Positions 1 through 11,386 of a stretch of DNA of 11,386 nucleotides are shown here, in pieces. Origin of the DNA: Candidatus Dadabacteria bacterium. GTDB lineage: Bacteria > Desulfobacterota_D > UBA1144 > Nemesobacterales > CSP1-2. The notes under the pieces were generated by a model. It did not search any database. It saw nothing but the letters and a program-made list of their open reading frames with translations, and was not told the DNA's origin. Positions within the stretch are counted from its first letter, which is position 1. Every line of letters begins with the position of its first letter. The position numbers were made by a program, and so were the translations under genes. The DNA is taken from contig PSLL01000011.1 of NCBI GenBank assembly GCA_040289575.1, positions 1 to 11,386 of the forward strand, read 5' to 3'.

Positions 1-26
1 GATAAGCAAGGTTAAAAGAGTTGGTT

Positions 27-431
27 CTACTCAGTCCTATTTATATAGCTAATTCTGGCTATAGTCCCTATCAATTCCAAGAAACCAATCCTTTTAGGTA
101 CATATATAACATTGGGAGAAGTAGATTTATACCTCCTGTGACTGGTAAGTAAAATAACCTTGGTATTAGGACTAATCAATGAGAGGAGTCCTATTAGTTC
201 ATCAATGTCTATCTCAAGTGTCGTATTATCAAGGAGCATAAATTCTGGTTTTATTGTAGTCGTATACTTTTCAACCTCCTCGCGGCTTAGGGATTCGGCT
301 ACTACTTTTATACCAGTCTCATCCTCTAGAATCTTACGGATTCCTTCTAAAAAGAGCCTTGATCTTGAGGCCAGTATTATTTGAATGGGTTTATCCAAAT
401 TCCTAATTAATCCATTTCGGTATATGTCCAA
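27..431 (-). CDS. Stand-alone, atypical NarL/FixJ-type response-regulator receiver (REC) domain protein without a DNA-binding domain
   Basis: 134 aa; TTG start with AAGGAGG 6 nt upstream. IILASRSRLFLEGIRKILE..GIKVVAE...KPEFMLLD...PNTKVILLT follows the NarL REC pattern, but the acidic DD pair is replaced by SR and there is no LuxR HTH. Confidence 0.65.
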   Translation of the reverse strand: MDIYRNGLIRNLDKPIQIILASRSRLFLEGIRKILEDETGIKVVAESLSREEVEKYTTTIKPEFMLLDNTTLEIDIDELIGLLSLISPNTKVILLTSHRRYKSTSPNVIYVPKRIGFLELIGTIARISYINRTE

Positions 432-544
432 CTTCTACCTCCTTATTTTTGCTGATTTAAGTCTCTAATCCTGTTTACATCCTTTCAGATGGTTTGCTTT
501 TGATTCAGGCTAAACCATGAGGAAGGTCTTGAAATTGATTTTAT

Positions 545-560
545 TGCAAATATCGTGCTA
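545..560 (-). promoter_or_regulatory. Sigma54-like -24/-12 promoter element upstream of the REC gene (one mismatch)
   Basis: Minus strand reads TAGCACG-ATAT-TTGCA versus consensus TGGCACG-N4-TTGCW. The mismatch is at the normally invariant first G of GG. Confidence 0.35.
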
Positions 561-639
561 TCTTAACATTGATTATCTCTGCCTAATCCCCTTGGAATGT
601 TGTCAAATTTGTTTTCCTTTAGAGCTATTGAGCATTGAA

Positions 640-656
640 GTGACAAAAAATGTCAC
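640..656. promoter_or_regulatory. Perfect palindrome GTGACA-N5-TGTCAC, probable transcription-factor binding site
   Basis: Seen directly in the divergent intergenic region between the REC gene and mltG. Confidence 0.55.
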
Positions 657-821
657 AAATGGAATTGAAATTGAAATCTTATGGCATAAGTTAACATCTA
701 CAATTTCCAAAGCTTATAGATTCTCTTGCGGTATAATATGAGTGTCTATATCGACTTTAATTGTGCCTTACAAATATTGTGAGGCCGAAATATTTCAAAT
801 CGGATTGGGGGAGTTTAAAGA

Positions 822-1847
822 ATGAAATTTAAAATGAGAGCAGTTATTATAATTGGAATTATATCTATAGCCTTTTTAGCTGGCTTTGTTTATTCTACTT
901 ATTTTGTTTCCCCGGTTCCTCAGAGAACCAAAAAGGTAACAATAGAGATTCCTAAACATTCCGGACTTAAAAGTATAGCCCTTGAACTAAAAAGGGCAGA
1001 AGTCATAAGAAGTGATAAACTATTTATTCTCTCTGTGTTGCTTAGAGGTGATAAGAGCAGATTAAAAGCCGGGGAATACGAATTTGAGCCTGGGGATTCG
1101 CTTAATGAAATAATTGAGAAACTCGTAAGGGGCGACGTAGTCGTCCACAGAATCACAATACCCGAGGGATTCACGATGAATGAAATAGCCGAGCTTTTAG
1201 AAAGAAATGGCATAATGTCCAAGGAGGCCTTTCTCGAAAGAGCCCGGAGTGCTGAGCTTGCGCGGGAGCTTCTCGGAGCCCCTTCTCTTACGAGCCTTGA
1301 AGGCTATTTATTCCCCGACTCATACTCGTATAAAAAAGGTATAACACCAGATGAACTTATACGGATGATGGTTGCGAGATTTAAGGAGGTTTACATGCCA
1401 CTTAGGACAAATTCAGGGGGACTCGATCTTACAGACCATGAGATTGTAACACTTGCGTCAATCATAGAGAAGGAGACCGGAAATATTTCTGAACGTCCTT
1501 TGGTCTCGGCGGTTTTCCATAATCGCCTTAAGCTGGGGATGAGGCTTGAGAGTGATCCTACAGTAATCTACGGAATAGACAGCTTTGACGGAAATCTTAG
1601 GAAGAAGGATCTAAAAGCTGAGACCAGATATAACACATACGTGATTTTTGGACTTCCTCCGGGACCGATTTCAAATCCCGGAAGGGATTCACTTGAGGCT
1701 GCCCTGAATCCGGCACACGTCAACTATCTGTATTTTGTATCGAAGGGAGACGGCACCCATGAATTCTCCTCTAACTATAGAGACCACAGAAGGGCCGTAA
1801 TCGAGTATCAAAAGGGGCTCGGTTCTAACGGGAAAAAACCTCAGTAA
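822..1847 (+). CDS. mltG: Endolytic peptidoglycan transglycosylase MltG (YceG family)
   Basis: 341 aa; N-terminal TM helix, LKAGEY, ITIPEG, LEGYLFPDSY, LASIIEKET (catalytic Glu), VFHNRL..GMRLESDPTV, YNTY...GLPPGPISNPG, YLYFV. Confidence 0.95.
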   Translation: MKFKMRAVIIIGIISIAFLAGFVYSTYFVSPVPQRTKKVTIEIPKHSGLKSIALELKRAEVIRSDKLFILSVLLRGDKSRLKAGEYEFEPGDSLNEIIEKLVRGDVVVHRITIPEGFTMNEIAELLERNGIMSKEAFLERARSAELARELLGAPSLTSLEGYLFPDSYSYKKGITPDELIRMMVARFKEVYMPLRTNSGGLDLTDHEIVTLASIIEKETGNISERPLVSAVFHNRLKLGMRLESDPTVIYGIDSFDGNLRKKDLKAETRYNTYVIFGLPPGPISNPGRDSLEAALNPAHVNYLYFVSKGDGTHEFSSNYRDHRRAVIEYQKGLGSNGKKPQ

Positions 1848-3894
1848 ACGGGTCTACCCTGGGTTTTATAGGAGTCGAGGGAGTATTTAGTTTTTTCTCC
1901 TTTCTCTCTATTCTGATTGTTCCGTCTCTTCCGCGGGATGCTATGAACTGGGCGCCAACTGTTTCTTCGGAAATCTTCTGAAGAATCTTAGGATAGTTTT
2001 TAGAGCCGATAAATATTGAATGAATACAAACGCCGAGCTTTTTTGCCTTTAGTCTTTCATTTAAAACCTCACAATCTCCTGATGTGGGAATTCCATCGGT
2101 GATAAAAAGTATGTGCTTGTTTCTCAATCCCCTTCCCTTAAATTCAGACAGAGCGTCCTTTAGGGCATCCTCGTAGTTTGTATTTCCAGAACACTCCGTT
2201 TTTGAGGCAAGCTGAAGTATCCAGTCATAGTCTCTGGTTAAGAACTTTCCGTTCCTTTTATATTTGTACGAGCGGTGGTTGAATTCAATATATCCAACCC
2301 TCATTTTCTTCATCCTTGCAAGCTCAATAACGCCCCGCACGACTGAAGAAGACCACTCGCTGTAGACGCCCATCATTGATGTGCTTACATCTCTTAGAAT
2401 TGCAATCTCTCCGCCAAGCGTCTCTTTCTCGCGTTTATGAACCCTAGGAAGTGTAGGCGTCGTATTTTCAGCCCAGAATATGCTCTCAAAAGGGTCAGCA
2501 TCTTCTATCTCCTCGAAGTATCTCATCCTTTTCCATCTTCTGGGCTGCCCGCCAGGATGAGGCGCATCAAGGGCGATGCTTCTTTGAAAGTTACCTTCTA
2601 AAACCTTCATCACGATCTTCACGTTCTCTGCGGCCTCAAGATTCCTTTTTCCTCCTATCCAGGAATCATCCTCATCGCCGGCATAAGGGGATTTGCTCCC
2701 ATATACCTTCTGCAAACCCTTGGGTCTTTCCCCTCCTTCCGGATGACCGCCTTGATCCTGTCCGCTGGCTGGTTTCATCTCGGATTTTTCATTCATCTGC
2801 AGGTTCATATCGCTCCTTTCCCCTGTAAGATTGTCTTTGAGCTCTTTTAGTGCTTGAAAAAAGGTTTTACGCGCCTCTGAAAGTTGATCGGACTGCCGCT
2901 CTCCCTCGGGGCTTTCTTTCTCCCTCTCGCCCGGGGCGTGCTGCTCAAATTCAGACATCGGCGGTTGTTCTATATTGCTTTTTGAGTCCTGATGGACTTT
3001 TTTTTTAGAGATTACGTCCTCAAGTATTTCATCAAGCTTGAGGAATACCTCTTCAGGTATTCGAAAAGCCGTCATGTATTTTAGAGCCTTGAGATCTTCA
3101 ACAGCGCAATGGTTTCTGCCATTGAGAACCGCATGAGACCTAATAATTTTAAGGGACTTTACAAAGAACGTTCTATCCGAGATAAGGGAATTGGATTCGT
3201 TAAGACCGTATTCCTCAATCAAAGTCTCGACGAAGTCTACCAGTGTATCCTGAACCTCGGAGGGAATATCTATGGTACTGAGTCTATTATAGTACTCGTC
3301 GAGAATCTTTCTGCTTACCCTTACTGGGACATCATACTCGAATGGTCTTTTTGAATAGAGCTTTACTACCTCTTTCGCCTCATTCCATCTCTTGCCATAG
3401 GAAAGCCCGCGGGCTTTGATCTGGAGTACGAATCGGTCGAGGTTAGCCGGGTCTAGAGGCTCGTTATAGTATTCATCGGCTGTGGGGTTGCTTGTGGCAA
3501 TTGCGGTAAGTAGGGGTATAGGGTCCTCCCCGAATTTTCGTTCATTTAGAATTCTAAGGAGCACATTAAGCGATTCTCCGGGCGCGCGTGAGATGTCGTC
3601 AAGAAGGCAAATTTCGGCAGTGAGTATTCCGCCTTTTACGATTCTCTGCTTAATGAGTTCACCTGTACCCATAACCTCCTTCGAGATGGCAAGATCGCCT
3701 ACGAGTTCTGAGAGTCTGGTGTCTCTATGGAGCTGATAGAAGAAAAAGTTGAGCTGTGCGGCTCCTGAGATGATTTCAGCAAGCATTGTCTTAGCAGTCC
3801 CCGGGGGACCCTCTATGTATATGTGCTCCCGGGAAATTACACCAAGAAGGAGAGACATCTTCACATCTTCATGCCCTATAACGAGGTTGTCCAT
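1825..3894 (-). CDS. RavA/MoxR-family AAA+ ATPase fused through a charged linker to a C-terminal VWA (ViaA-like) domain; true start probably 3932 (see findings)
   Basis: Walker A GPPGTAKT, Walker B-like CLLDDI, LNVLLRILNER, sensor-1 ATSN, Arg finger LDRF, sensor-2 ISDR. An E/Q/K/G/P-rich linker follows, then a VWA MIDAS motif DVSTS...GNTN...ITDG. Confidence 0.88.
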   Translation of the reverse strand: MDNLVIGHEDVKMSLLLGVISREHIYIEGPPGTAKTMLAEIISGAAQLNFFFYQLHRDTRLSELVGDLAISKEVMGTGELIKQRIVKGGILTAEICLLDDISRAPGESLNVLLRILNERKFGEDPIPLLTAIATSNPTADEYYNEPLDPANLDRFVLQIKARGLSYGKRWNEAKEVVKLYSKRPFEYDVPVRVSRKILDEYYNRLSTIDIPSEVQDTLVDFVETLIEEYGLNESNSLISDRTFFVKSLKIIRSHAVLNGRNHCAVEDLKALKYMTAFRIPEEVFLKLDEILEDVISKKKVHQDSKSNIEQPPMSEFEQHAPGEREKESPEGERQSDQLSEARKTFFQALKELKDNLTGERSDMNLQMNEKSEMKPASGQDQGGHPEGGERPKGLQKVYGSKSPYAGDEDDSWIGGKRNLEAAENVKIVMKVLEGNFQRSIALDAPHPGGQPRRWKRMRYFEEIEDADPFESIFWAENTTPTLPRVHKREKETLGGEIAILRDVSTSMMGVYSEWSSSVVRGVIELARMKKMRVGYIEFNHRSYKYKRNGKFLTRDYDWILQLASKTECSGNTNYEDALKDALSEFKGRGLRNKHILFITDGIPTSGDCEVLNERLKAKKLGVCIHSIFIGSKNYPKILQKISEETVGAQFIASRGRDGTIRIERKEKKLNTPSTPIKPRVDPFTEVFSR

Positions 3895-3970
3895 TTCCTC
3901 TTAAGCGCTTTAAAAGGGTTTTGATCTGTCATTTATATGCTTGCCCTCCCTTGACTTTACTCACTATTTA

Positions 3971-3999
3971 ATTCTACCTAAATAGAGATTTTCTTGCAA
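3971..3999 (-). promoter_or_regulatory. Sigma70-type promoter for the AAA-VWA gene
   Basis: Minus strand TTGCAA (3999-3994), 17 nt spacer, TAGAAT (3976-3971), followed by SD GGGAGG (3950-3945) and ATG at 3932. Confidence 0.6.
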
Positions 4000-4090
4000 T
4001 ATTGTCCCTTCTAATTAGTTTCTTAGGGATTAGCCATTAGGAATTTTTTATTTGTACCTTATGCAACTTAGTAGCTAGTTCTACCTCCAT

Positions 4091-4792
4091 TTAGTGTCTT
4101 CTGAAAATACTACCAAACCGATTTGATTCATAGGAATATCCCTTTTTCTCAAAGGGTTTCGCAAGAATAAGACCTGCAATGAATCCTCCTGTGTGAGCCC
4201 AGAACGCAATGCCCCCGTCGCTTTGAGTTACGGTAAGTGAAGCAACTCCGCTGAAGAACTGTATGACAAACCAAAATAAGAGAAAAGCGACAGCTGGGAT
4301 TTCAACAATCTGGATAAAGAAGAATATAGGAACCAGAGTAAGAACCTTGGATCTGGGAAAGTATAGAATATACGCCCCTAAAACCCCTGCGATTGCACCG
4401 CTTGCCCCAATCATCGGAATTGTGGAATGAAGATTTGCAAGAGCCTGTGAAAAGGCGGAGATCAATCCGGTAATTAGGTAGAAAAATAGGTACTTGAGGT
4501 GTCCTATCCTATCTTCGACATTATCTCCAAAGATATAGAGATAGAGCATGTTACCTATTATGTGGAGCCATCCACTGTGGAGAAACATAAATGTAAAAAG
4601 AGGATAGATGCGAAAATCCGCGTGCTCAGGAACGGTAAAAGAGGCGGGGACAAGCCCATAGTGATTTATAAAGTAGGGTAGACGGCTACCCAAAGAAAGC
4701 TCATAGAAAAATACCACTATGTTCACTATTATAAGGATGGTATTGACAATTGGAAAACTTCTCGATGGTATTGTGTCGCGAATAGGGATCAT
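4091..4792 (-). CDS. Rhomboid-family intramembrane serine protease
   Basis: 233 aa, multiple hydrophobic segments; MIPIRD start, FLHSGWLHIIGNMLYL..FGDNVE, catalytic GASG and AHTGG. Confidence 0.93.
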   Translation of the reverse strand: MIPIRDTIPSRSFPIVNTILIIVNIVVFFYELSLGSRLPYFINHYGLVPASFTVPEHADFRIYPLFTFMFLHSGWLHIIGNMLYLYIFGDNVEDRIGHLKYLFFYLITGLISAFSQALANLHSTIPMIGASGAIAGVLGAYILYFPRSKVLTLVPIFFFIQIVEIPAVAFLLFWFVIQFFSGVASLTVTQSDGGIAFWAHTGGFIAGLILAKPFEKKGYSYESNRFGSIFRRH

Positions 4793-4872
4793 AAGTAATT
4801 CTAAACTATAGTCTACATAATTACAGCCCGGGCTTCAAAAGGATTGCGCCTTATTTAATAGTTCTAAGGGAC

Positions 4873-4901
4873 TTGCAATGGGTTATTTTAAAGCTTAAAA
4901 T
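4873..4901 (+). promoter_or_regulatory. Sigma70-type promoter for the KdsC-like gene
   Basis: TTGCAA (4873-4878), 17 nt spacer, TAAAAT (4896-4901); AAGGAG SD just upstream of ATG 4934. Confidence 0.55.
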
Positions 4902-4933
4902 GAATTAACTAAATTGAACTTAAAGGAGAGAGG

Positions 4934-5416
4934 ATGCTTGAGAGGCTAAGAACCGACCTTGTGCGGAGACTCAAACCGATTAAGCTTTTGATAATAAATG
5001 CCGATGGGCTTCTTACCGAAAACCCTTATAGTGTAGGTTTTAAAAATGGAGACGCGATCAGGGCTTTGAGGGATTTAGGGATTAGGATTGCAGGATTTTC
5101 AGTAAGAAAGTCTGAGACTCTTTTCTCTATAGGGAGCCAGATTGGAATAGAACCACTCTATCAAGCCATCTCTCAAAAATCTCAATTCTATTATAAAATT
5201 AAGTCTAAGCATTTAATCTCAGATGATGGAGTCGCATTCTTAGGATGGGATCTTTCAGACCTTCCTATCATTGAGAAGGCGAGTTTTTCTATAGCTCCTT
5301 CAGACGCTGCTCTTGAGGTTAGGGCTATGTCTTATTATGTCACATACTGCAATGGCGAGGGGGCGGTAAGAGAGGCGGCCGAGCTTATATTAAAAGCGAG
5401 GGGCCATTCCATATAA
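4934..5416 (+). CDS. KdsC/YrbI-like HAD-superfamily protein with degenerate catalytic motifs
   Basis: IKLLIINADGLLT (KdsC: IKLL..DVDGVLTD), VAFLGWDLSDLP (KdsC: ..GDD..DLP), APSDA...V...YVT...GEGAVRE..ELIL. Confidence 0.75.
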   Translation: MLERLRTDLVRRLKPIKLLIINADGLLTENPYSVGFKNGDAIRALRDLGIRIAGFSVRKSETLFSIGSQIGIEPLYQAISQKSQFYYKIKSKHLISDDGVAFLGWDLSDLPIIEKASFSIAPSDAALEVRAMSYYVTYCNGEGAVREAAELILKARGHSI

Positions 5417-5446
5417 GATATTCAGATAAATCCTGTGTGGTGATCC

Positions 5447-5892
5447 CTATCTCTCATCAGTTTTGGGTTGTACCTTGATTTCTATGGATTTCGTTTCTGT
5501 TTTAGGAGGTAGCTGCGCTATGGTTTTTTCTGGCGACTGTTCCATAGCGCACCTTCCATTATAAATTCTCCCGTCCTCTATAATTAGGGATTTTGTAAAT
5601 ACATCGCCCGATACGCTGCTGTCCCTTTTTATCTCCAGCCTTTGTGACTCAACGCTCCCCTCTATTTTTCCGTGTACTATAACTTCGATGGCTTTAACTT
5701 CGCCCCTGACAATGCCCTTTTCTCCAACTACCAAAATGCCATTGGTGCTAATTTTTCCCCTTACACTTCCGTCTATTCTTGTTGAAGAAGGGGAGATGAT
5801 ATCTCCGTCAAATGTACATCCTTCGCCTATTAAAGCCACAATCTCGTCTGATCTGTGGTCTGATTGCTTATGCTTTTTCCCTTTCCAAACAT
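5447..5892 (-). CDS. Bactofilin (polymer-forming cytoskeletal protein, CcmA/BacA family); ORF track starts at GTG 5839, and the likely native ATG at 5892 is one base out of frame
   Basis: IGEGCTFDGDI....RIDG.V.G.I.....LVVGEKG.V.GEV.A..V.V.G...G.V....LEI......GD.....L.IEDG..YNG is the bactofilin beta-helix pattern; lies directly downstream of an M23 peptidase. Confidence 0.88.
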
Positions 5893-5899
5893 GGCTCAG

Positions 5900-6730
5900 T
5901 TACCTCAAAAATAAATAGTTAATGGGGTCTATGCTCTTGCCGTCTTTTATTACCTCGTAGTGTAAATGAGGACCCGTAGATCTTCCCGTTGAACCCGTGT
6001 ACCCAATTATATCCCCGGCTTTAACGCTTTGACCCTCTCTTACCCTGATTTTTGATAAGTGTCCATAGAGGGTTTGATAATCATCTTTATGCTCGATTAT
6101 AACGGTTTCTCCATAAGTTCTGTACCAACCTGCCTGCTCTACCACTCCGTCGGCAGTTGCAACTACGGGTTGTCCAAACTTTGCATCTATATCCACGCCA
6201 GAATGGAAGGCCAGTTTAGAGTTAAATGGGTCCTTCCTATAGCCAAAGCCGGAATTTATCTCGCCTGATAAGGGGGTGCCTACTGGGAAGCTCCTCACTA
6301 TATCAAATAGTTCATTAATGTTTTCTTCTACAAAGTCCGCATGTGATAGGTTTAGTTGATTTGCCGGTATGAACTCACCGCCAACGGATAGTTCATTCTT
6401 TATTCCTTTCTTGTCTAATAGTTCTTGCATTTCTAGAAGCCTCTTCTCTATATTACTCAATCTTTCTTCTAGCTTCTCTTTGTTAGTCTCGTTCCTGTTC
6501 AAATCCCCGTTTAAGATATTTATTTGGCTAATAAGCCGATTTATCGCCTCTTTTCTCTTATCTGCCCTTTTATAGAGTTCATAGGTAAGTATAAAAGATG
6601 AGAGAAAAACGGTGATGAGTCCTATTGAAGTAAAGAAAGCCAATTTAATTTGATAAAACTTAACATTAAAAGATTTTACTCCTTTGCCTCTAGTGGTAAA
6701 CATTAGGATTCTTATGTAGTCTCTTTCCAT
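5900..6730 (-). CDS. M23-family (LytM) peptidoglycan endopeptidase with N-terminal TM helix and coiled coil
   Basis: 276 aa; TM segment near residues 29-50, coiled coil, SGFGYRKDPF, Zn ligands HSGVD and HLH, YGHL, GSTGRSTGPHLHYEV; SD GGAGG upstream. Confidence 0.93.
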   Translation of the reverse strand: MERDYIRILMFTTRGKGVKSFNVKFYQIKLAFFTSIGLITVFLSSFILTYELYKRADKRKEAINRLISQINILNGDLNRNETNKEKLEERLSNIEKRLLEMQELLDKKGIKNELSVGGEFIPANQLNLSHADFVEENINELFDIVRSFPVGTPLSGEINSGFGYRKDPFNSKLAFHSGVDIDAKFGQPVVATADGVVEQAGWYRTYGETVIIEHKDDYQTLYGHLSKIRVREGQSVKAGDIIGYTGSTGRSTGPHLHYEVIKDGKSIDPINYLFLR

Positions 6731-6804
6731 GATCTTTCTCCTCCATTGAGATTCAGATAGTTTGATTACGCTACCGGTAGGCTATCTTCTTTATTGTTTC
6801 AGCG

Positions 6805-6834
6805 ACTATACCATATTCTCTATTTATATTGCAA
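6805..6834 (-). promoter_or_regulatory. Sigma70-type extended -10 promoter for the M23-bactofilin operon
   Basis: Minus strand TTGCAA (6834-6829), 18 nt spacer ending TGG, TATAGT (6810-6805). Confidence 0.5.
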
Positions 6835-7017
6835 CCCCCGCGTTGGCTCATATTAAAATTCTTTGAAACATCCCACAGGCCCGATAGAAAAACTAAGAAT
6901 TATCTATGACCTGCCTATAGTGATAGAAGACCCGTATGTGGCTTCTAACAATTTGGGTTGCAATATCGCCGACGATGTGGTTAACTAAATATTTAACGAA
7001 AAAACGGAGGGGGAAAG

Positions 7018-7734
7018 ATGAATCTAAACCAAAACACAAAAATCACATATCTTGGCCATGCGACATTTAAAATTCAGTCGCCTAATGGAAAGACTGTGTT
7101 AATAGATCCATGGGTTCAGGGGAATCCTGCCTGTCCGAAGGAGCATCAAAGGTTTGATAAGATAGATATTATGGCAATAACACATGCCCACTTTGACCAT
7201 ATAGGCGATGCCGTTGCGATTGGGAAAGAGTATAAACCCAAGGTTTTGGGGATTTATGAGACATGCGTATGGGTTAATTCAAAAGGGGTTCAGGCGATTA
7301 TGCCTATGAATAAGGGCGGCACGCAGGAAGTAGATGGAATTAAGTTTACAATGGTGCACGCCGACCACAGCTGTGGGATTCAGGATGATGAGGGAAGGAT
7401 TATATATGGCGGCGAAGCTGTGGGCTATGTCATAGAATTTGAAAATGGGTTTAAGATATACCACGCAGGGGATACGGCGGTATTCAGCGATATGAAGCTC
7501 ATTGCCGAGATATACAAGCCTGAGCTTGTTATGATTCCGATCGGAGATTTGTTTACGATGTCTCCAAAGGAGGCTGCTTATGCTTGCCGTTTCCTCTCCC
7601 CTAAGTATGTGATCCCTATGCACTACGCCACGTTTCCCGTTTTAACCGGAACCCCTGCGCAACTAAGAGAACTCACGAGTGATATTAAAGGTATGGAAAT
7701 TATAGAACTAAAGCCTGGGGAAACGTTGAGTTAG
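7018..7734 (+). CDS. Metal-dependent hydrolase, metallo-beta-lactamase fold (UPF0173/UlaG-like)
   Basis: ITYLGHATF, LIDPW..NP, THAHFDH metal motif, MNKGG, HADHS, IYHAGDT, PIGD.FTM.P, IPMHY.TFP; SD GGAGG upstream. Confidence 0.9.
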   Translation: MNLNQNTKITYLGHATFKIQSPNGKTVLIDPWVQGNPACPKEHQRFDKIDIMAITHAHFDHIGDAVAIGKEYKPKVLGIYETCVWVNSKGVQAIMPMNKGGTQEVDGIKFTMVHADHSCGIQDDEGRIIYGGEAVGYVIEFENGFKIYHAGDTAVFSDMKLIAEIYKPELVMIPIGDLFTMSPKEAAYACRFLSPKYVIPMHYATFPVLTGTPAQLRELTSDIKGMEIIELKPGETLS

Positions 7735-7760
7735 AACCCATGTCTTATATAGTTGTCATT

Positions 7761-7786
7761 GTAGGGGTGAATCTTGTATTCGCCCT
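7761..7786 (+). repeat. GTAG-type REP-like hairpin, possibly also the terminator of the hydrolase gene
   Basis: GTAG followed by GGGTGAAT-CTTGT-ATTCGCCC (8-bp stem with one G-U pair), then TATTGTTTT; 27 nt after the stop codon. Confidence 0.5.
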
Positions 7787-7851
7787 ATTGTTTTGGGCTG
7801 CAGTTTAGAGAATTTGAATTGTAGGTTGATGAACGTTTTTAGGAGGTAAAC

Positions 7852-8670
7852 ATGGCTGAGGGGAAAAGACAATATGTTAATTACATATTTTACAAAATAG
7901 ACCCAATGTGGAGGCGGCTTTCAGATGAGGAAAGGGACAGGGGCAAAAGGGAGTTTGCCGGAGTGATAGAAGAATATTCGAAGGGGCGGTTCCCTAAAAA
8001 CCGCGATTGCGATGAACAAGAGCAATCGGATGCCATCAACCGCAAGCCTCACAGTCAAGATCAGCCGAAATCTCCTATTCGTCCCTCCGGGATCACTACC
8101 CCAGAAGCCCCGATTATGGTCTACACATATTCTACATTCGGGCTTCGTGCCGATTCAGATTTTATGATATGGAGGATAGGCTATTCCCTTGAGGGTTTTC
8201 AGGAGATGTCGTCAAAGATTGTAAATACTGCGCTTGGTAAGTATCTCCATAACACCTGGTCGTTTCTGTCTATGACTAAGCATTCAACGTATGTTGATAA
8301 GCACTTCCATGAAGGACAGGAGGGTAGAAGAGCAAGGATCGTTCCGAGTCAATCTAGATACATGTTTGTATATCCGTTTGTAAAGACGACTGACTGGTAT
8401 TTACTCCCGATGGAAGACCGCCAGAGAATGATGGATGAGCATATTCAGCTTGGACATAAGTATCCGTCTGTAAAGATAAACACATCGTATTCATTTGGAC
8501 TGGATGACCAAGAGTTTATAGTCGCCTTTGAGACCGATAAGCCGGAGGACTTTATGGAAGTAGTAATGGGGATGAGAGAGCAGGAGGGAAGGAAATATAC
8601 GCTCCGAGACACGCCAATATTTACCTGTGTCAAAAAAGACATCGGAGAAATTCTCGATATGGTGGCTTGA
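7852..8670 (+). CDS. Chlorite dismutase / coproheme decarboxylase (ChdC/HemQ) family heme-binding protein with a 43-aa insertion
   Basis: YS..GLRADSDFMIW; YPFVK..DWYLLP.EDRQRMM.EH (proximal His, ChdC-type Tyr/Lys); NTSYSFGLDDQEFIVAFE; DTPIF. The distal Arg of true chlorite dismutases is not evident. SD AGGAGG upstream. Confidence 0.88.
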   Translation: MAEGKRQYVNYIFYKIDPMWRRLSDEERDRGKREFAGVIEEYSKGRFPKNRDCDEQEQSDAINRKPHSQDQPKSPIRPSGITTPEAPIMVYTYSTFGLRADSDFMIWRIGYSLEGFQEMSSKIVNTALGKYLHNTWSFLSMTKHSTYVDKHFHEGQEGRRARIVPSQSRYMFVYPFVKTTDWYLLPMEDRQRMMDEHIQLGHKYPSVKINTSYSFGLDDQEFIVAFETDKPEDFMEVVMGMREQEGRKYTLRDTPIFTCVKKDIGEILDMVA

Positions 8671-8678
8671 ATTGAAGG

Positions 8679-9587
8679 TCAACCATATTTAAAAAGCGCG
8701 AGATATCTAAGTACTGGTCTTGGAAATCTACCTATCTGCACGGGAGAAAAGGTGCCGTCGGGAGATATGAATTCAACCTCGTAGTTGCGCTCAATCAAAG
8801 CCAGAAGAAGCGATGCGATATATGTTATTTCACGCTCTACTTCTGTTCTACTTTTAGGATTGAACTCTATCGTAATCCTTTTTGATTCATCGTCCTGAAG
8901 TTCCCGCAGCATAAGCTCCCCAATCTTAGCCGTAGTTCTCCAGTGTATAAATTTTGGATTGTCCCCTTCGTGGTAGGCTCTAATTGATCTCAGATCGCCT
9001 CCGAATCCTAAACTTTCAGACTCCTTTTCACCGAATTCCTGTTGAAACGCATCTTTATCAATTGCTAGTTTCTCAACCTTTGGATAAACGAGAACCTCTT
9101 GTTCATTGCCGAAGTCAATTCTGATCCATTTTTTAAAGAAGCCAAAGGGGAACTTGGTAAATAGAATGGCTTGGGGAAATTTATTCCATCCCCTTTTTTT
9201 GAAAAGACCCCATACGGTTAAAGTCTTTGTAACTTTGGGCGGAAGATAGGACATGAATGCCCTTCTTCCCTCTATATCGATTGTCAGGGAATAGGACGGG
9301 ATGAGAATTTTTAGGTTTCTCACCGAGAACCTAAGCGGTGTCGGTGTGAGCGCAAAAACATCTTCGAGTGGATTGATTTTTATCTCAATTCCTGAGAGAT
9401 TAATCATGGACATGATGCCCGATGTGGCGATGAAGCTCAGCATCATACCGAAAATCAGGTAAAGCAGATTATTTCCTGTATTTAGCGCGGCAAAGCCTAC
9501 AAAGAACGTAAGCCCTAAAAATGTAATTCCTTCTTTTGTAGGACGGGTTCTAGCCCAGTTATCTCTTCCGAGTTTAAGCGATTTCAT
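8679..9587 (-). CDS. DUF58-domain membrane-anchored protein (MoxR-associated family)
   Basis: PTKEG..F......GFAALNTGNNLLYL N-terminal TM hairpin, KRG.......TKFPFGFF, VLVYP, and the DUF58 signature DLRSIRAYHEGDNPKFIHWRTTAK. Confidence 0.88.
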   Translation of the reverse strand: MKSLKLGRDNWARTRPTKEGITFLGLTFFVGFAALNTGNNLLYLIFGMMLSFIATSGIMSMINLSGIEIKINPLEDVFALTPTPLRFSVRNLKILIPSYSLTIDIEGRRAFMSYLPPKVTKTLTVWGLFKKRGWNKFPQAILFTKFPFGFFKKWIRIDFGNEQEVLVYPKVEKLAIDKDAFQQEFGEKESESLGFGGDLRSIRAYHEGDNPKFIHWRTTAKIGELMLRELQDDESKRITIEFNPKSRTEVEREITYIASLLLALIERNYEVEFISPDGTFSPVQIGRFPRPVLRYLALFKYG

Positions 9588-9627
9588 TCTCTAAACTTTG
9601 GGGCAGGTTTGCCCACACAAAAATACA

Positions 9628-11223
9628 CTACTTAAGTTGAATCAGTCGGCTTAAAGATTCTATGATTGAGCCTTTAAGTCTGGAGAGGTCATTGTAAATC
9701 GCAAGAAACATGATGAAGATTAAAAATGTAAGCCCTATGCGCTGACTAATCTCCAGGGTTCTTTGGCTAAGAGGACGCCTCCGTACAGATTCTATTGCCA
9801 GATAGAGCACATGACCGCCGTCTAGCATTGGGATAGGGAAGAGATTTATAAGGCCGAGATTTACGCTAATAAAAGCCATAAATTGAAGAAGCGACGGCAA
9901 TCCGTTTTGCGCCGCTGACCCGGAGACCTTGGCGATAAATATTGGGCCTGCGATGCTCTTACCAGCCGTCCCCAGGGATATCTTCCCCATGATGAGCTTA
10001 TATATAAATGAAAATAGAAGAACCGTAATCTCACCCACCAGCCTTCCTGCTTCTTTAACTCCTTCAAAAATAGATTTAAAGAACCCATACTTTTTTATAA
10101 CCTCATCCCTGTAAGGAGTGATTCCTATTGCTCCTTTATTGCTTCCCTGCAGAGGCTCAGGAGTGATTTTGACATCGAACCGGCTGTCATCTCTCTCTAC
10201 AAGAAGAGTAATCTCTTGGTTTGCTTTTTCTTTGATAATAGATGCCATCTGATACCAGTCTGAGATCTTCGTATTGTTTATTGAGAGAATCCTATCTCCT
10301 TTTTTAAGCCCCGCCTTTTTGGCCGGGGTTCCATCTATCACACCTCCGATTTTGGCCTCAATCGGCTCTCCAATCCCTATTGCCGTAGTGCCTTCGGGAG
10401 ATGAGGTGGCTTTAAACTCGATGGTTTTTATCTCTCCATTTCTTTCGACCTTTACATTGAGAAGGGAGTCGGGGTTTGATTGGAATGCGATGTTTGCATC
10501 TCTCCAGGTTTTTAAATGTTCGCCATTTATCTCAAGTATTAAGTCTCCTTTTTGAAATCCGGCTGCGCTTGCGGCTGAATTTGGCTCTACGTATCCAATG
10601 ATGGGAGGATGTTCGAGATACGCCGGAACGGTTATGCCGAGAATAAAAACAATCGGAAGGAGAAAAAAGGGAAGAGCAAGATTCATAAAGGGGCCTGCAA
10701 CGACTATCTTAAACCTATTCCATGCGGACTGATTGGAAAAGCTCCGGTCGTATTCTTTCTCAGAAAAGATTTTCGCTCCGTCCGTATCCTTAGCTGTACC
10801 CTTGATTCTTAGTCTTTTTTCCCCCCTTTCTATAATAAATGTGTATTCCCTTTCAGGGTTTTCTTTTAGATTAAATTCAAGCTGCCTCCATCTTGGGAAT
10901 GAGGGTAAATCTATCCCGTCTATGCCGATTATCTTATCTCCGGGTTTAAATCCCCCTTTCTCCGCCAAAGAGCCGGGTGATACTTGATCTATGATAAAGT
11001 TTCCTTCGCTGCCCTCGCCATACATCTTTACGTATCCGCCCAGCGGGAGCATAGAAATCAGGTATTCTGTTTCTCCACGTCTAAATCCTAGGATTTTCCT
11101 TCCAAATCCCAGAGAGAACTTCTCTACCCTTACCTTGTTCCATTTTGCCACAAGGAAATGGCCAAGTTCATGGACAAAGACTAAGACTCCTATTACAAAA
11201 ATAAATGCTAAGAACACGGTCAT
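9628..11223 (-). CDS. rseP: RIP metalloprotease RseP (M50B site-2 protease) with three PDZ-like domains
   Basis: HELGH zinc motif, FSLGFG, LPLGGYVKM, AGPFMN, two tandem PDZ domains, AGPIFI, NLFPIPMLDGGH; downstream of dxr as in the conserved dxr-rseP order; SD AGGAG. Confidence 0.95.
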   Translation of the reverse strand: MTVFLAFIFVIGVLVFVHELGHFLVAKWNKVRVEKFSLGFGRKILGFRRGETEYLISMLPLGGYVKMYGEGSEGNFIIDQVSPGSLAEKGGFKPGDKIIGIDGIDLPSFPRWRQLEFNLKENPEREYTFIIERGEKRLRIKGTAKDTDGAKIFSEKEYDRSFSNQSAWNRFKIVVAGPFMNLALPFFLLPIVFILGITVPAYLEHPPIIGYVEPNSAASAAGFQKGDLILEINGEHLKTWRDANIAFQSNPDSLLNVKVERNGEIKTIEFKATSSPEGTTAIGIGEPIEAKIGGVIDGTPAKKAGLKKGDRILSINNTKISDWYQMASIIKEKANQEITLLVERDDSRFDVKITPEPLQGSNKGAIGITPYRDEVIKKYGFFKSIFEGVKEAGRLVGEITVLLFSFIYKLIMGKISLGTAGKSIAGPIFIAKVSGSAAQNGLPSLLQFMAFISVNLGLINLFPIPMLDGGHVLYLAIESVRRRPLSQRTLEISQRIGLTFLIFIMFLAIYNDLSRLKGSIIESLSRLIQLK

Positions 11224-11247
11224 GTTTCTTTTTCTCCTGATCTGTAA

Positions 11248-11386
11248 TTATGCTATTAACGATTTTGCGGCTCTTCTTGCCCAAGCGTCGCTCTCTAGAA
11301 TCTCTTCAAGTGCATCACCCGGAAGGATTTTATGCGTTTCCATTACCCGGTTTACTATATTTAGAATTTCTGTAAATTTTAGTTTC
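11248..11386 (-). CDS. dxr: 1-deoxy-D-xylulose 5-phosphate reductoisomerase, 3' end only (runs off the window; not in the ORF track)
   Basis: Manual translation KLKFTEILNIVNRVMETHKILPGDALEEILESDAWARRAAKSLIA* matches the Dxr C-terminal pattern (F..I......H......LEEI...D.WAR); sits immediately upstream of rseP. Confidence 0.85.
   Translation of the reverse strand, partial: KLKFTEILNIVNRVMETHKILPGDALEEILESDAWARRAAKSLIA

Follow-up and report, generated by a model that had tools for sequence, protein, structure and literature searches.

Some AAA+ genes make two proteins from one gene by slipping on a run of A's. In frameshifted chlD genes (the 'magnesium chelatase' cluster of frameshifted genes; Antonov et al. 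2013, PMC3711429; Kuznetsov et al. 2022, PMC9227772) an AAA+ module is joined through an acidic linker to a VWA domain, with a poly-A run at the AAA/linker junction; the split forms depend on a -1 shift, other taxa have the gene fused in frame, and the one gene supplies both a small subunit (AAA only) and a medium one (AAA-VWA). The in-frame A9 gene dnaX of Thermus thermophilus likewise yields the full-length (tau) and truncated (gamma) AAA+ subunits of one ring by transcriptional slippage; relatives exist in which the long form needs recoding, and E. coli dnaX has a -1 site of the form A_AAA_AAG (PMC3711429). We describe here a gene of another AAA+ family, that of the MoxR-type ATPases, which together with their VWA partners are widespread and poorly understood chaperone-like machines in which the number of adaptors per ring is in question. 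The gene is on the minus strand of an 11,386-nucleotide stretch of Candidatus Dadabacteria DNA (assembly GCA_040289575.1, contig PSLL01000011.1, positions 1 to 11,386; hereafter the window) and encodes an AAA+ module, a linker and a VWA domain, with a run of nine A's (the A9 run) at the junction between the first two. We propose, with a probability of about 0.7, that this run is a selected recoding site, through which the one gene would give both the full AAA+-linker-VWA chain (689 aa) and a shorter chain, of about 307-314 aa, that has the AAA+ module only. The device is thus of a known kind, that of chlD and dnaX, and it is the AAA+ family (MoxR-VWA) that is different.

The predicted protein, P0001, has the AAA - acidic/Pro-rich linker - VWA layout of the ChlD, BchD and CobT medium subunits, including the metal ion-dependent adhesion site (MIDAS) of the VWA domain. 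Unlike chlD, its AAA module is MoxR/RavA-like rather than ChlI-like, its genome has no CobN/ChlH partner, and the taxa concerned are Dadabacteria and relatives of a Tectimicrobiota-labelled protein. The likeness to dnaX extends to the E. coli slip site, A_AAA_AAG being present in phase in 35 split Dadabacteria loci, whereas the clamp loader is another family and complex, and the conserved Shine-Dalgarno (SD) sequence and hairpin reported for E. coli dnaX (PMC3711429) have no conserved counterparts here. Among ATPases that work with VWA proteins, RavA-ViaA is close in sequence: the MoxR-type structure 2r44 (chain A) and the RavA structures 3nbx and 6q7l are the best ATPase matches in PDB, covering residues 4-274, the AAA_lid_8, AAA_5 and bpMoxR domains are held in common, and the ATPase is functionally paired with a VWA/MIDAS protein. 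RavA and ViaA are, however, encoded by separate genes, whereas here the VWA domain is covalently fused, or recoded, onto the ATPase. In CobS-CobT, too, a VWA adaptor works with an AAA+ hexamer, and a single VWA globular region is seen to face the ring pore, but the two are separate polypeptides, made without recoding and acting on the client CobN (bioRxiv 10.64898/2026.10.09.757910; 10.64898/2026.07.21.739949). That complex offers a precedent for a ring with fewer engaged VWA adaptors than ATPase subunits and supports such a ring here by analogy only. Our literature search found no description of recoding in MoxR-VWA genes; the supplement file of PMC3711429 that was searched holds no MoxR, VWA or AAA_5 cluster, and another file of that supplement may list a related GeneTack cluster.

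What would slippage on the run produce? The coding strand reads CTT GAG GAC GTA ATC TCT AAA AAA AAA GTC, the nine A's being positions 3006-2998, and the run starts at gene nucleotide 889, at codon 297, in phase 0. The computed mass of the full-length product is 78.3 kDa. Read as A10, the message would encode a protein ending ...KKKSPSGLKKQYRTTADV* (314 aa, 35.5 kDa, TGA at 2953-2951); read as A8, it would encode one ending ...KKKSIRTQKAI* (307 aa, 34.8 kDa, TAG at 2972-2970). The tails peculiar to the shifted frames are SPSGLKKQYRTTADV (-1) and SIRTQKAI (+1). These coordinates and peptides had been given in an initial annotation made from the letters alone, and all proved correct when the sequence was re-read and re-translated. 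The TAG at 2970-2972 is the same stop that closes the short product in split orthologues of the A11 type and in the related genome G009.

Orthologous loci were gathered from 61 related genomes (the window's own and 60 of the same order) and from 79 loci on contigs taken one genome per species. In the 61-genome search the gene was recovered as a single frame in some cases and, in others, as two neighbouring matches that join at about residues 297-300. One locus (L065) lacked the N-terminal half and was left out, and the 108 loci holding that half gave 84 distinct junctions once 24 with a duplicate junction had been set aside; two more (L064 and L103) have N's at the junction, leaving 82 that could be evaluated. 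At least nine consecutive A's stand at the junction in all 108 loci. The 82 evaluable loci have A9 to A12, in 11 combinations of run length and codon phase. The linker-VWA half is in the -1 frame in 65 of them, in frame (fused) in 17, among them the window, and in the +1 frame in none. Thus a run of nine or more A's, written in all-AAA codons, was kept in every orthologue examined, and 65 of the 82 have the VWA half out of frame, always in the -1 direction; these were the two comparative checks proposed in the initial annotation, and both agree with its reading. No orthologue lacking the run, and none with mixed AAA and AAG codons at it, was found among these loci. A slip-prone homopolymer (A7 or more, or at least 8-9 for transcriptional slippage) that is conserved at the nucleotide level at one position is a hallmark of programmed poly-A recoding, and the run has this property.

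This conservation does not extend to lysine codons in general. Elsewhere in these genes 53% of Lys codons are AAA (2310 AAA, 2042 AAG), and no other invariant-Lys column is all-AAA, either in the 17 fused loci (0 of 14 columns) or in all 82 (0 of 10). The run also stands out as the main conserved island of the region when 27 sequences are aligned as DNA.

In the split loci the zero frame terminates 7-12 codons from the start of the run. The -1 frame opens at the run itself in 35 of the 65 (a T followed by AA of the run makes TAA), and in 64 of the 65 there is no ATG, GTG or TTG between its opening and the run; past the run, the first start codon comes 13 to 393 nt further down. Nearly all of the 24 A11-type split loci share an ATG at +192 to +219; an earlier start is present at +57 to +66 in five of the 24 and a TTG at +153 to +162 in three. 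Is the stretch between run and start translated? The first 11 codons after the run cannot be used for a codon-position test because two frames overlap there, and codons 12-62 were taken instead. In the 24 A11-type loci these vary in the ratio 23/12/45 by codon position, with 3807 synonymous and 1533 non-synonymous single-base codon differences. The start-less -1 frame of split loci thus evolves, by this measure, as coding sequence under purifying selection. Since it is constrained coding sequence without a start codon, it would be reached only by way of the run in most A11-type loci. A constrained downstream frame with no start of its own, the other hallmark of programmed poly-A recoding, is accordingly found in the orthologues, the window itself being in frame.

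MoxR ATPases are commonly encoded beside separate VWA proteins, and the split relatives might have two ordinary, translationally coupled genes, a MoxR ATPase and a VWA protein, of which the window's gene would be a fusion and in which the A-run would be incidental. In favour of this, 21 of the 23 loci of the A10-type clade (L077-L099) have an ATG 34 nt past the run, and high-GC relatives (L129-L135) have an AAA-only gene without an A-run. Against it stand the want of a -1 start before the run in all but one split locus and the position of the shared A11-type start, some 192-219 nt down and beyond sequence that is already constrained as coding. Further, in most loci the tblastn alignment of the C-terminal half starts at query residues 296-298, which is the run; the run is the best-conserved nucleotide island of the region; and an incidental run would not remain all-A when the control Lys columns are mixed. 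We consider coupled genes highly improbable.

The fused loci raise a different question, which is whether the run still does anything there. The window's gene could be a silent relic, in which a split, slippage-dependent ancestor was fused by a one-base change and the A9 run now only encodes Lys-Lys-Lys, any slipped product being noise. The gene is in frame, the short form is a predicted product, and the first-branching Dadabacteria clade is split (on a FastTree tree with a midpoint root), so that fusion may be derived. The codon record points the other way. At least nine A's are kept in 17 of 17 fused loci, in at least four separately derived groups, where the other invariant lysines mix AAA and AAG. 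One locus, L015, retains A10 although it uses 4 AAA against 47 AAG codons elsewhere (8% AAA), and A10 is also retained in fused loci of GC 0.52-0.58 that resemble the Tectimicrobiota-labelled protein P0042. Moreover, 16 of the 17 fused loci have a +1-frame stop 7-8 codons past the run, formed through ATA, GTA, TTA or CTA codons, the residue varying between Ile, Val and Leu; only 24% of Ile/Leu/Val codons are of the stop-forming kind as background. The retained stop, seen in few independent lineages, suggests that fused loci continue to make the short form. We regard the relic as unlikely, and the conservation of the run leads us to expect a short form from the window's in-frame A9 gene as well. 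It is of note that a metagenome contig whose junction region is close to the window's (L120, GC 0.44) has ATC (Ile) in place of GTC (Val) after the run, making A10 while still in frame; the run can therefore lengthen by substitution and not by indel alone.

The two settings, fused and split, are interspersed. On the FastTree tree (SH-like support only, midpoint root, with the join of the outgroup to the marine clade possibly a long-branch artefact) the fused state needs five changes, of which at least four are forced by well-supported branches. Close relatives can differ by one A with opposite states: L025 is A10 and split where L011 and L012 are A11 and fused, and L074 is A12 and fused where L063 is A11 and split. 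The window's own family is mostly fused, G009 (A10) being split and adjoining two fused A11 congeners. Because such near relatives have opposite states, either setting seems to be tolerated. On this comparative evidence, single A's are added to and removed from the run in the course of evolution; neither setting has died out, and the run is never lost. Persistence of both is what would be expected if each setting yields both proteins.

The same one-base differences could instead reflect phase variation at the DNA level, with replication slippage switching the VWA half on and off in sub-populations and each genome showing only the majority state. Poly-A/T tracts can also cause such variation (PMC3711429), and two metagenome contigs have the VWA half in +1 (L118, A12; L140, A10). 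The state is, however, fixed in whole clades, 23 A10-type, 24 A11-type and 9 marine species all being -1, and none of the 82 species-level loci is in +1, whereas one-base DNA steps should yield both directions. Strong purifying selection acts on the VWA half in split species (22680 synonymous and 2041 non-synonymous differences), and the protein is of a cytoplasmic chaperone type, not a surface antigen. Weaker evidence comes from Logan contigs of four soil metagenome DNA runs from two studies, two of which runs may be the source sample of the window: all show A9 with no indels, although contigs drop minor variants and cannot reveal them. Phase variation is, in our judgement, decidedly unlikely.

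Recoding at the run therefore remains the reading that we prefer, and the initial proposal of two products finds support at the comparative level in the conserved run, the -1 orthologues and the purifying selection on the shifted frame. As to mechanism, RNA polymerase would slip on the run, so that some transcripts gain or lose an A, and/or the ribosome would slip -1 on A_AAA_AAA. In the window the long form would be the default and the short form would come from a slip; in most related species, where the run is one base out, the short form would be the default and the long form would need the slip. Both forms share the ATPase module and would presumably join in the same MoxR-type rings, a tethered VWA (MIDAS) adaptor being present on only some of the subunits, as with ChlI/ChlD or CobS/CobT in the class I chelatases. 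We infer slippage in this organism, its efficiency, its step of action and the co-assembly of the two forms.

Which signal would direct the slip? The GAGG to which the initial annotation drew attention, as a possible SD-like stimulator, does stand 11 nt upstream in the window, but it is not a conserved element. Conserved stimulators of the dnaX sort (an upstream SD, a downstream hairpin) are absent, and such a feature is not required for slippage on long runs. As neither a conserved SD nor a conserved RNA structure was found, the poly-A run itself is the likely signal. Homopolymers of eight or more are the usual signal for transcriptional slippage (PMC3711429), and the minimum of nine A's everywhere, more than the seven that a ribosomal heptamer needs, fits that mode; ribosomal -1 shifting stays a candidate because of the split loci with A_AAA_AAG in phase. 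Chelatase poly-A cassettes placed in E. coli gave 10% frameshifted product with A7, 40% with A9 and 63% with A11 (PMC3711429).

Several points weigh against recoding in the window. In the first place, an A9 run is not rare in itself: there are 19 A/T runs of at least nine in the 3.06-Mb genome, several of which, by our reading, are A's on the sense strand of a long open frame, and for this reason the case rests on comparison and not on the run. The window's gene is in frame and would serve as an ordinary single-product gene. The orthologous loci come from related Candidatus Dadabacteria species and so are not independent samples, the retained +1 stop rests on few independent lineages, and all the genomes are metagenome-assembled, so that individual homopolymer lengths may be assembly errors. 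Only 28 of the 82 loci have an SD-like motif 5-20 nt upstream, and RNAalifold predicted no conserved pairs around the run over 27 diverse junctions. Finally, a search for RNA sequencing runs that contain the window's DNA found none, and both the slipped transcripts and the short protein are predicted ones.

Two other homopolymers of the genome deserve mention. An A9 in an RF1-like gene (contig C101) was considered as a second slip candidate and rejected when the frame break there proved to be an assembly gap of N's. The longest homopolymer, 16 A's on the plus strand of contig C88 (6599-6614; genome G000, that of the window), lies at the start of a 130-codon minus-strand open frame and may be a promoter or leader tract.

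A broader reading, for which we would give slightly less than even odds, is that the run acts as a family-wide rheostat: its length and frame would set the ratio of bare-ATPase to VWA-tethered subunits in a MoxR ring made from one gene, the default having flipped several times between long and short in Dadabacteria, and apparently in a second phylum, with the run never lost. If this is true, sub-stoichiometric, covalently tethered adaptors would be essential to the action of MoxR-VWA chaperones, and this would be a kind of MoxR machine not previously described. Conservation of a recoding site throughout a candidate phylum would imply a need for each of the two forms, and the short list of cellular genes that use poly-A slippage would gain a member that is not a chelatase. 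The run would also give a direct genetic handle on the ratio of the forms, through synonymous AAA-to-AAG or run-length changes. For annotation, the consequence is that most Dadabacteria genomes will have this gene called as two genes, or as an ATPase and a start-less fragment.

Outside Dadabacteria, KKK recurs at this position in most of the fused homologues that share about 50% identity with P0001, some of which are labelled Tectimicrobiota or Entotheonellaceae; among 10 outgroup sequences aligned with P0001, three lack KKK and one has KKN. Seven fused metagenome loci 83-89% identical to P0042, the GC 0.52-0.58 group mentioned above, have A10 at the same junction, written as CGA or AGA followed by AAA AAA AAA, with a +1-frame TAG or TAA directly after. 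Other states occur: L118, on a related contig, and L140, on a Dadabacteria-type contig, are the two with the VWA half in +1, and in L142, from another lineage, an A10 run is followed by the VWA half in the -1 frame.

The high-GC relatives L129-L135 (metagenome contigs, GC 0.70-0.73) are organized differently. They have a fused AAA-VWA paralogue (34-37% identical to P0042) followed by the AAA-only gene (54-58% identical), and the open reading frame after the latter begins VKISVEVNGQ... in L129, L131, L134 and L135; we take this to resemble the small 2Fe-2S subunits of the CoxS type. These loci amount to a two-gene version of the same product pair and possibly hint at a role in dehydrogenase maturation.

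The features of the gene are collected in Table 1. Pfam assigns residues 4-162 of P0001 to bpMoxR/AAA_5/AAA_3, 219-274 to AAA_lid_8 and 497-647 to VWA models. All ATPase-module scores exceed their cut-offs (PF20030, 70.6 bits; PF07728, 70.1; PF07726, 40.2; PF17868, 28.0), as do those of the VWA fold models (PF13768, 32.8 bits; PF13519, 32.5; PF00092, 30.7). With its Walker A-containing core and MoxR/RavA-type lid P0001 is, by sequence, a MoxR family ATPase, and with models above cut-off and a DxSxS motif its VWA domain is by the same token a MIDAS domain; D502, S504, S506, T599 and D600 are invariant in the 16-sequence alignment. An AlphaFold2 model built from that alignment (mean predicted local distance difference test score, pLDDT, 63.3) is confident up to about residue 300 and again folds a VWA domain at about 496-664. 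Its last confident helix spans 287-306 and pLDDT falls below 50 over 304-340, which would place the A9 run at the AAA-module/linker boundary; the confidence profile of the model thus bears out the position proposed for it at the outset.

Table 1. Features of the MoxR-VWA gene and its A9 run (window coordinates)
Feature	Position	Strand	Evidence
A9 run, Lys297-299 (AAA AAA AAA), proposed slippage/frameshift site	2998..3006	-	Sequence; conserved as A9-A12 in 82/82 evaluable orthologous loci
TGA in the -1 frame; would end the 314-aa chain made from an A10 message or by a ribosomal shift of -1	2951..2953	-	
TAG in the +1 frame, overlapping ATA GAA (Ile-Glu); would close the 307-aa product of an A8 or A11 message	2970..2972	-	
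SD-like GAGG within Glu-Asp codons, ending 11 nt before the run; not conserved	3018..3021	-	
Whole gene (P0001, 689 aa): AAA+ module of MoxR-like type, then a charged linker, then a VWA domain	1825..3894	-	Open reading frame list, translation, Pfam
AAA+ ATPase module, codons 1-296; Walker A GPPGTAKT; AAA_5/bpMoxR/AAA_3 and AAA_lid_8; body of the predicted short product	3007..3894	-	Pfam, PDB matches, AlphaFold2
Linker, codons 300-495; acidic, Glu/Gln/Pro-rich, mostly low-confidence in the model; predicted helices 336-366 and 416-443	2410..2997	-	Translation, AlphaFold2
VWA domain, codons 496-664; MIDAS-type motif D502-x-S504-x-S506	1903..2409	-	Pfam VWA/VWA_2/VWA_3, 16-sequence alignment

Two closer assignments were considered and set aside. 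P0001 is not a RavA orthologue: against the RavA equivalog NF010054 it scores 66.8 bits, far below the cut-off of 681, and aligns over residues 11-327 only. Nor is it a class I chelatase subunit. Mg_chelatase PF01078 reaches 18.2 bits (cut-off 20.3) over residues 5-43 only and TIGR02442 reaches 20.9 (cut-off 779.45); further, a search for CobN/ChlH (PF02514) gave no match in the window's own genome (95.35% complete), the control search having been positive in 5 of 14 known genomes, and a chelatase role is rejected on both counts.

The Walker B motif of P0001 is LLDD (D99 D100; codons 98-99, window 3598-3603), where the usual form is hhhhDE. Both D residues are invariant in the 16-sequence alignment. 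Because this includes the more distant homologues, ATP hydrolysis may be slow or altered in the whole MoxR-VWA family.

We looked to the neighbouring genes for hints of function. A convergent mltG (YceG) gene at 822-1847 (plus strand) overlaps the 3' end of the MoxR-VWA gene by 23 nt (1825-1847) and is kept in 70 of the 82 loci; an upstream rhomboid gene (4091-4792) is kept in 8. Neither suggests a client, and the neighbourhood was dropped as a functional clue. DUF58 proteins usually accompany classical MoxR/VWA (Bat-type) operons, and a 302-aa open reading frame at 8679-9587 (minus strand) has a weak DUF58 match (21.3 bits, below the cut-off). Further MoxR paralogues are found elsewhere in the genome, on contigs C82 and C126.

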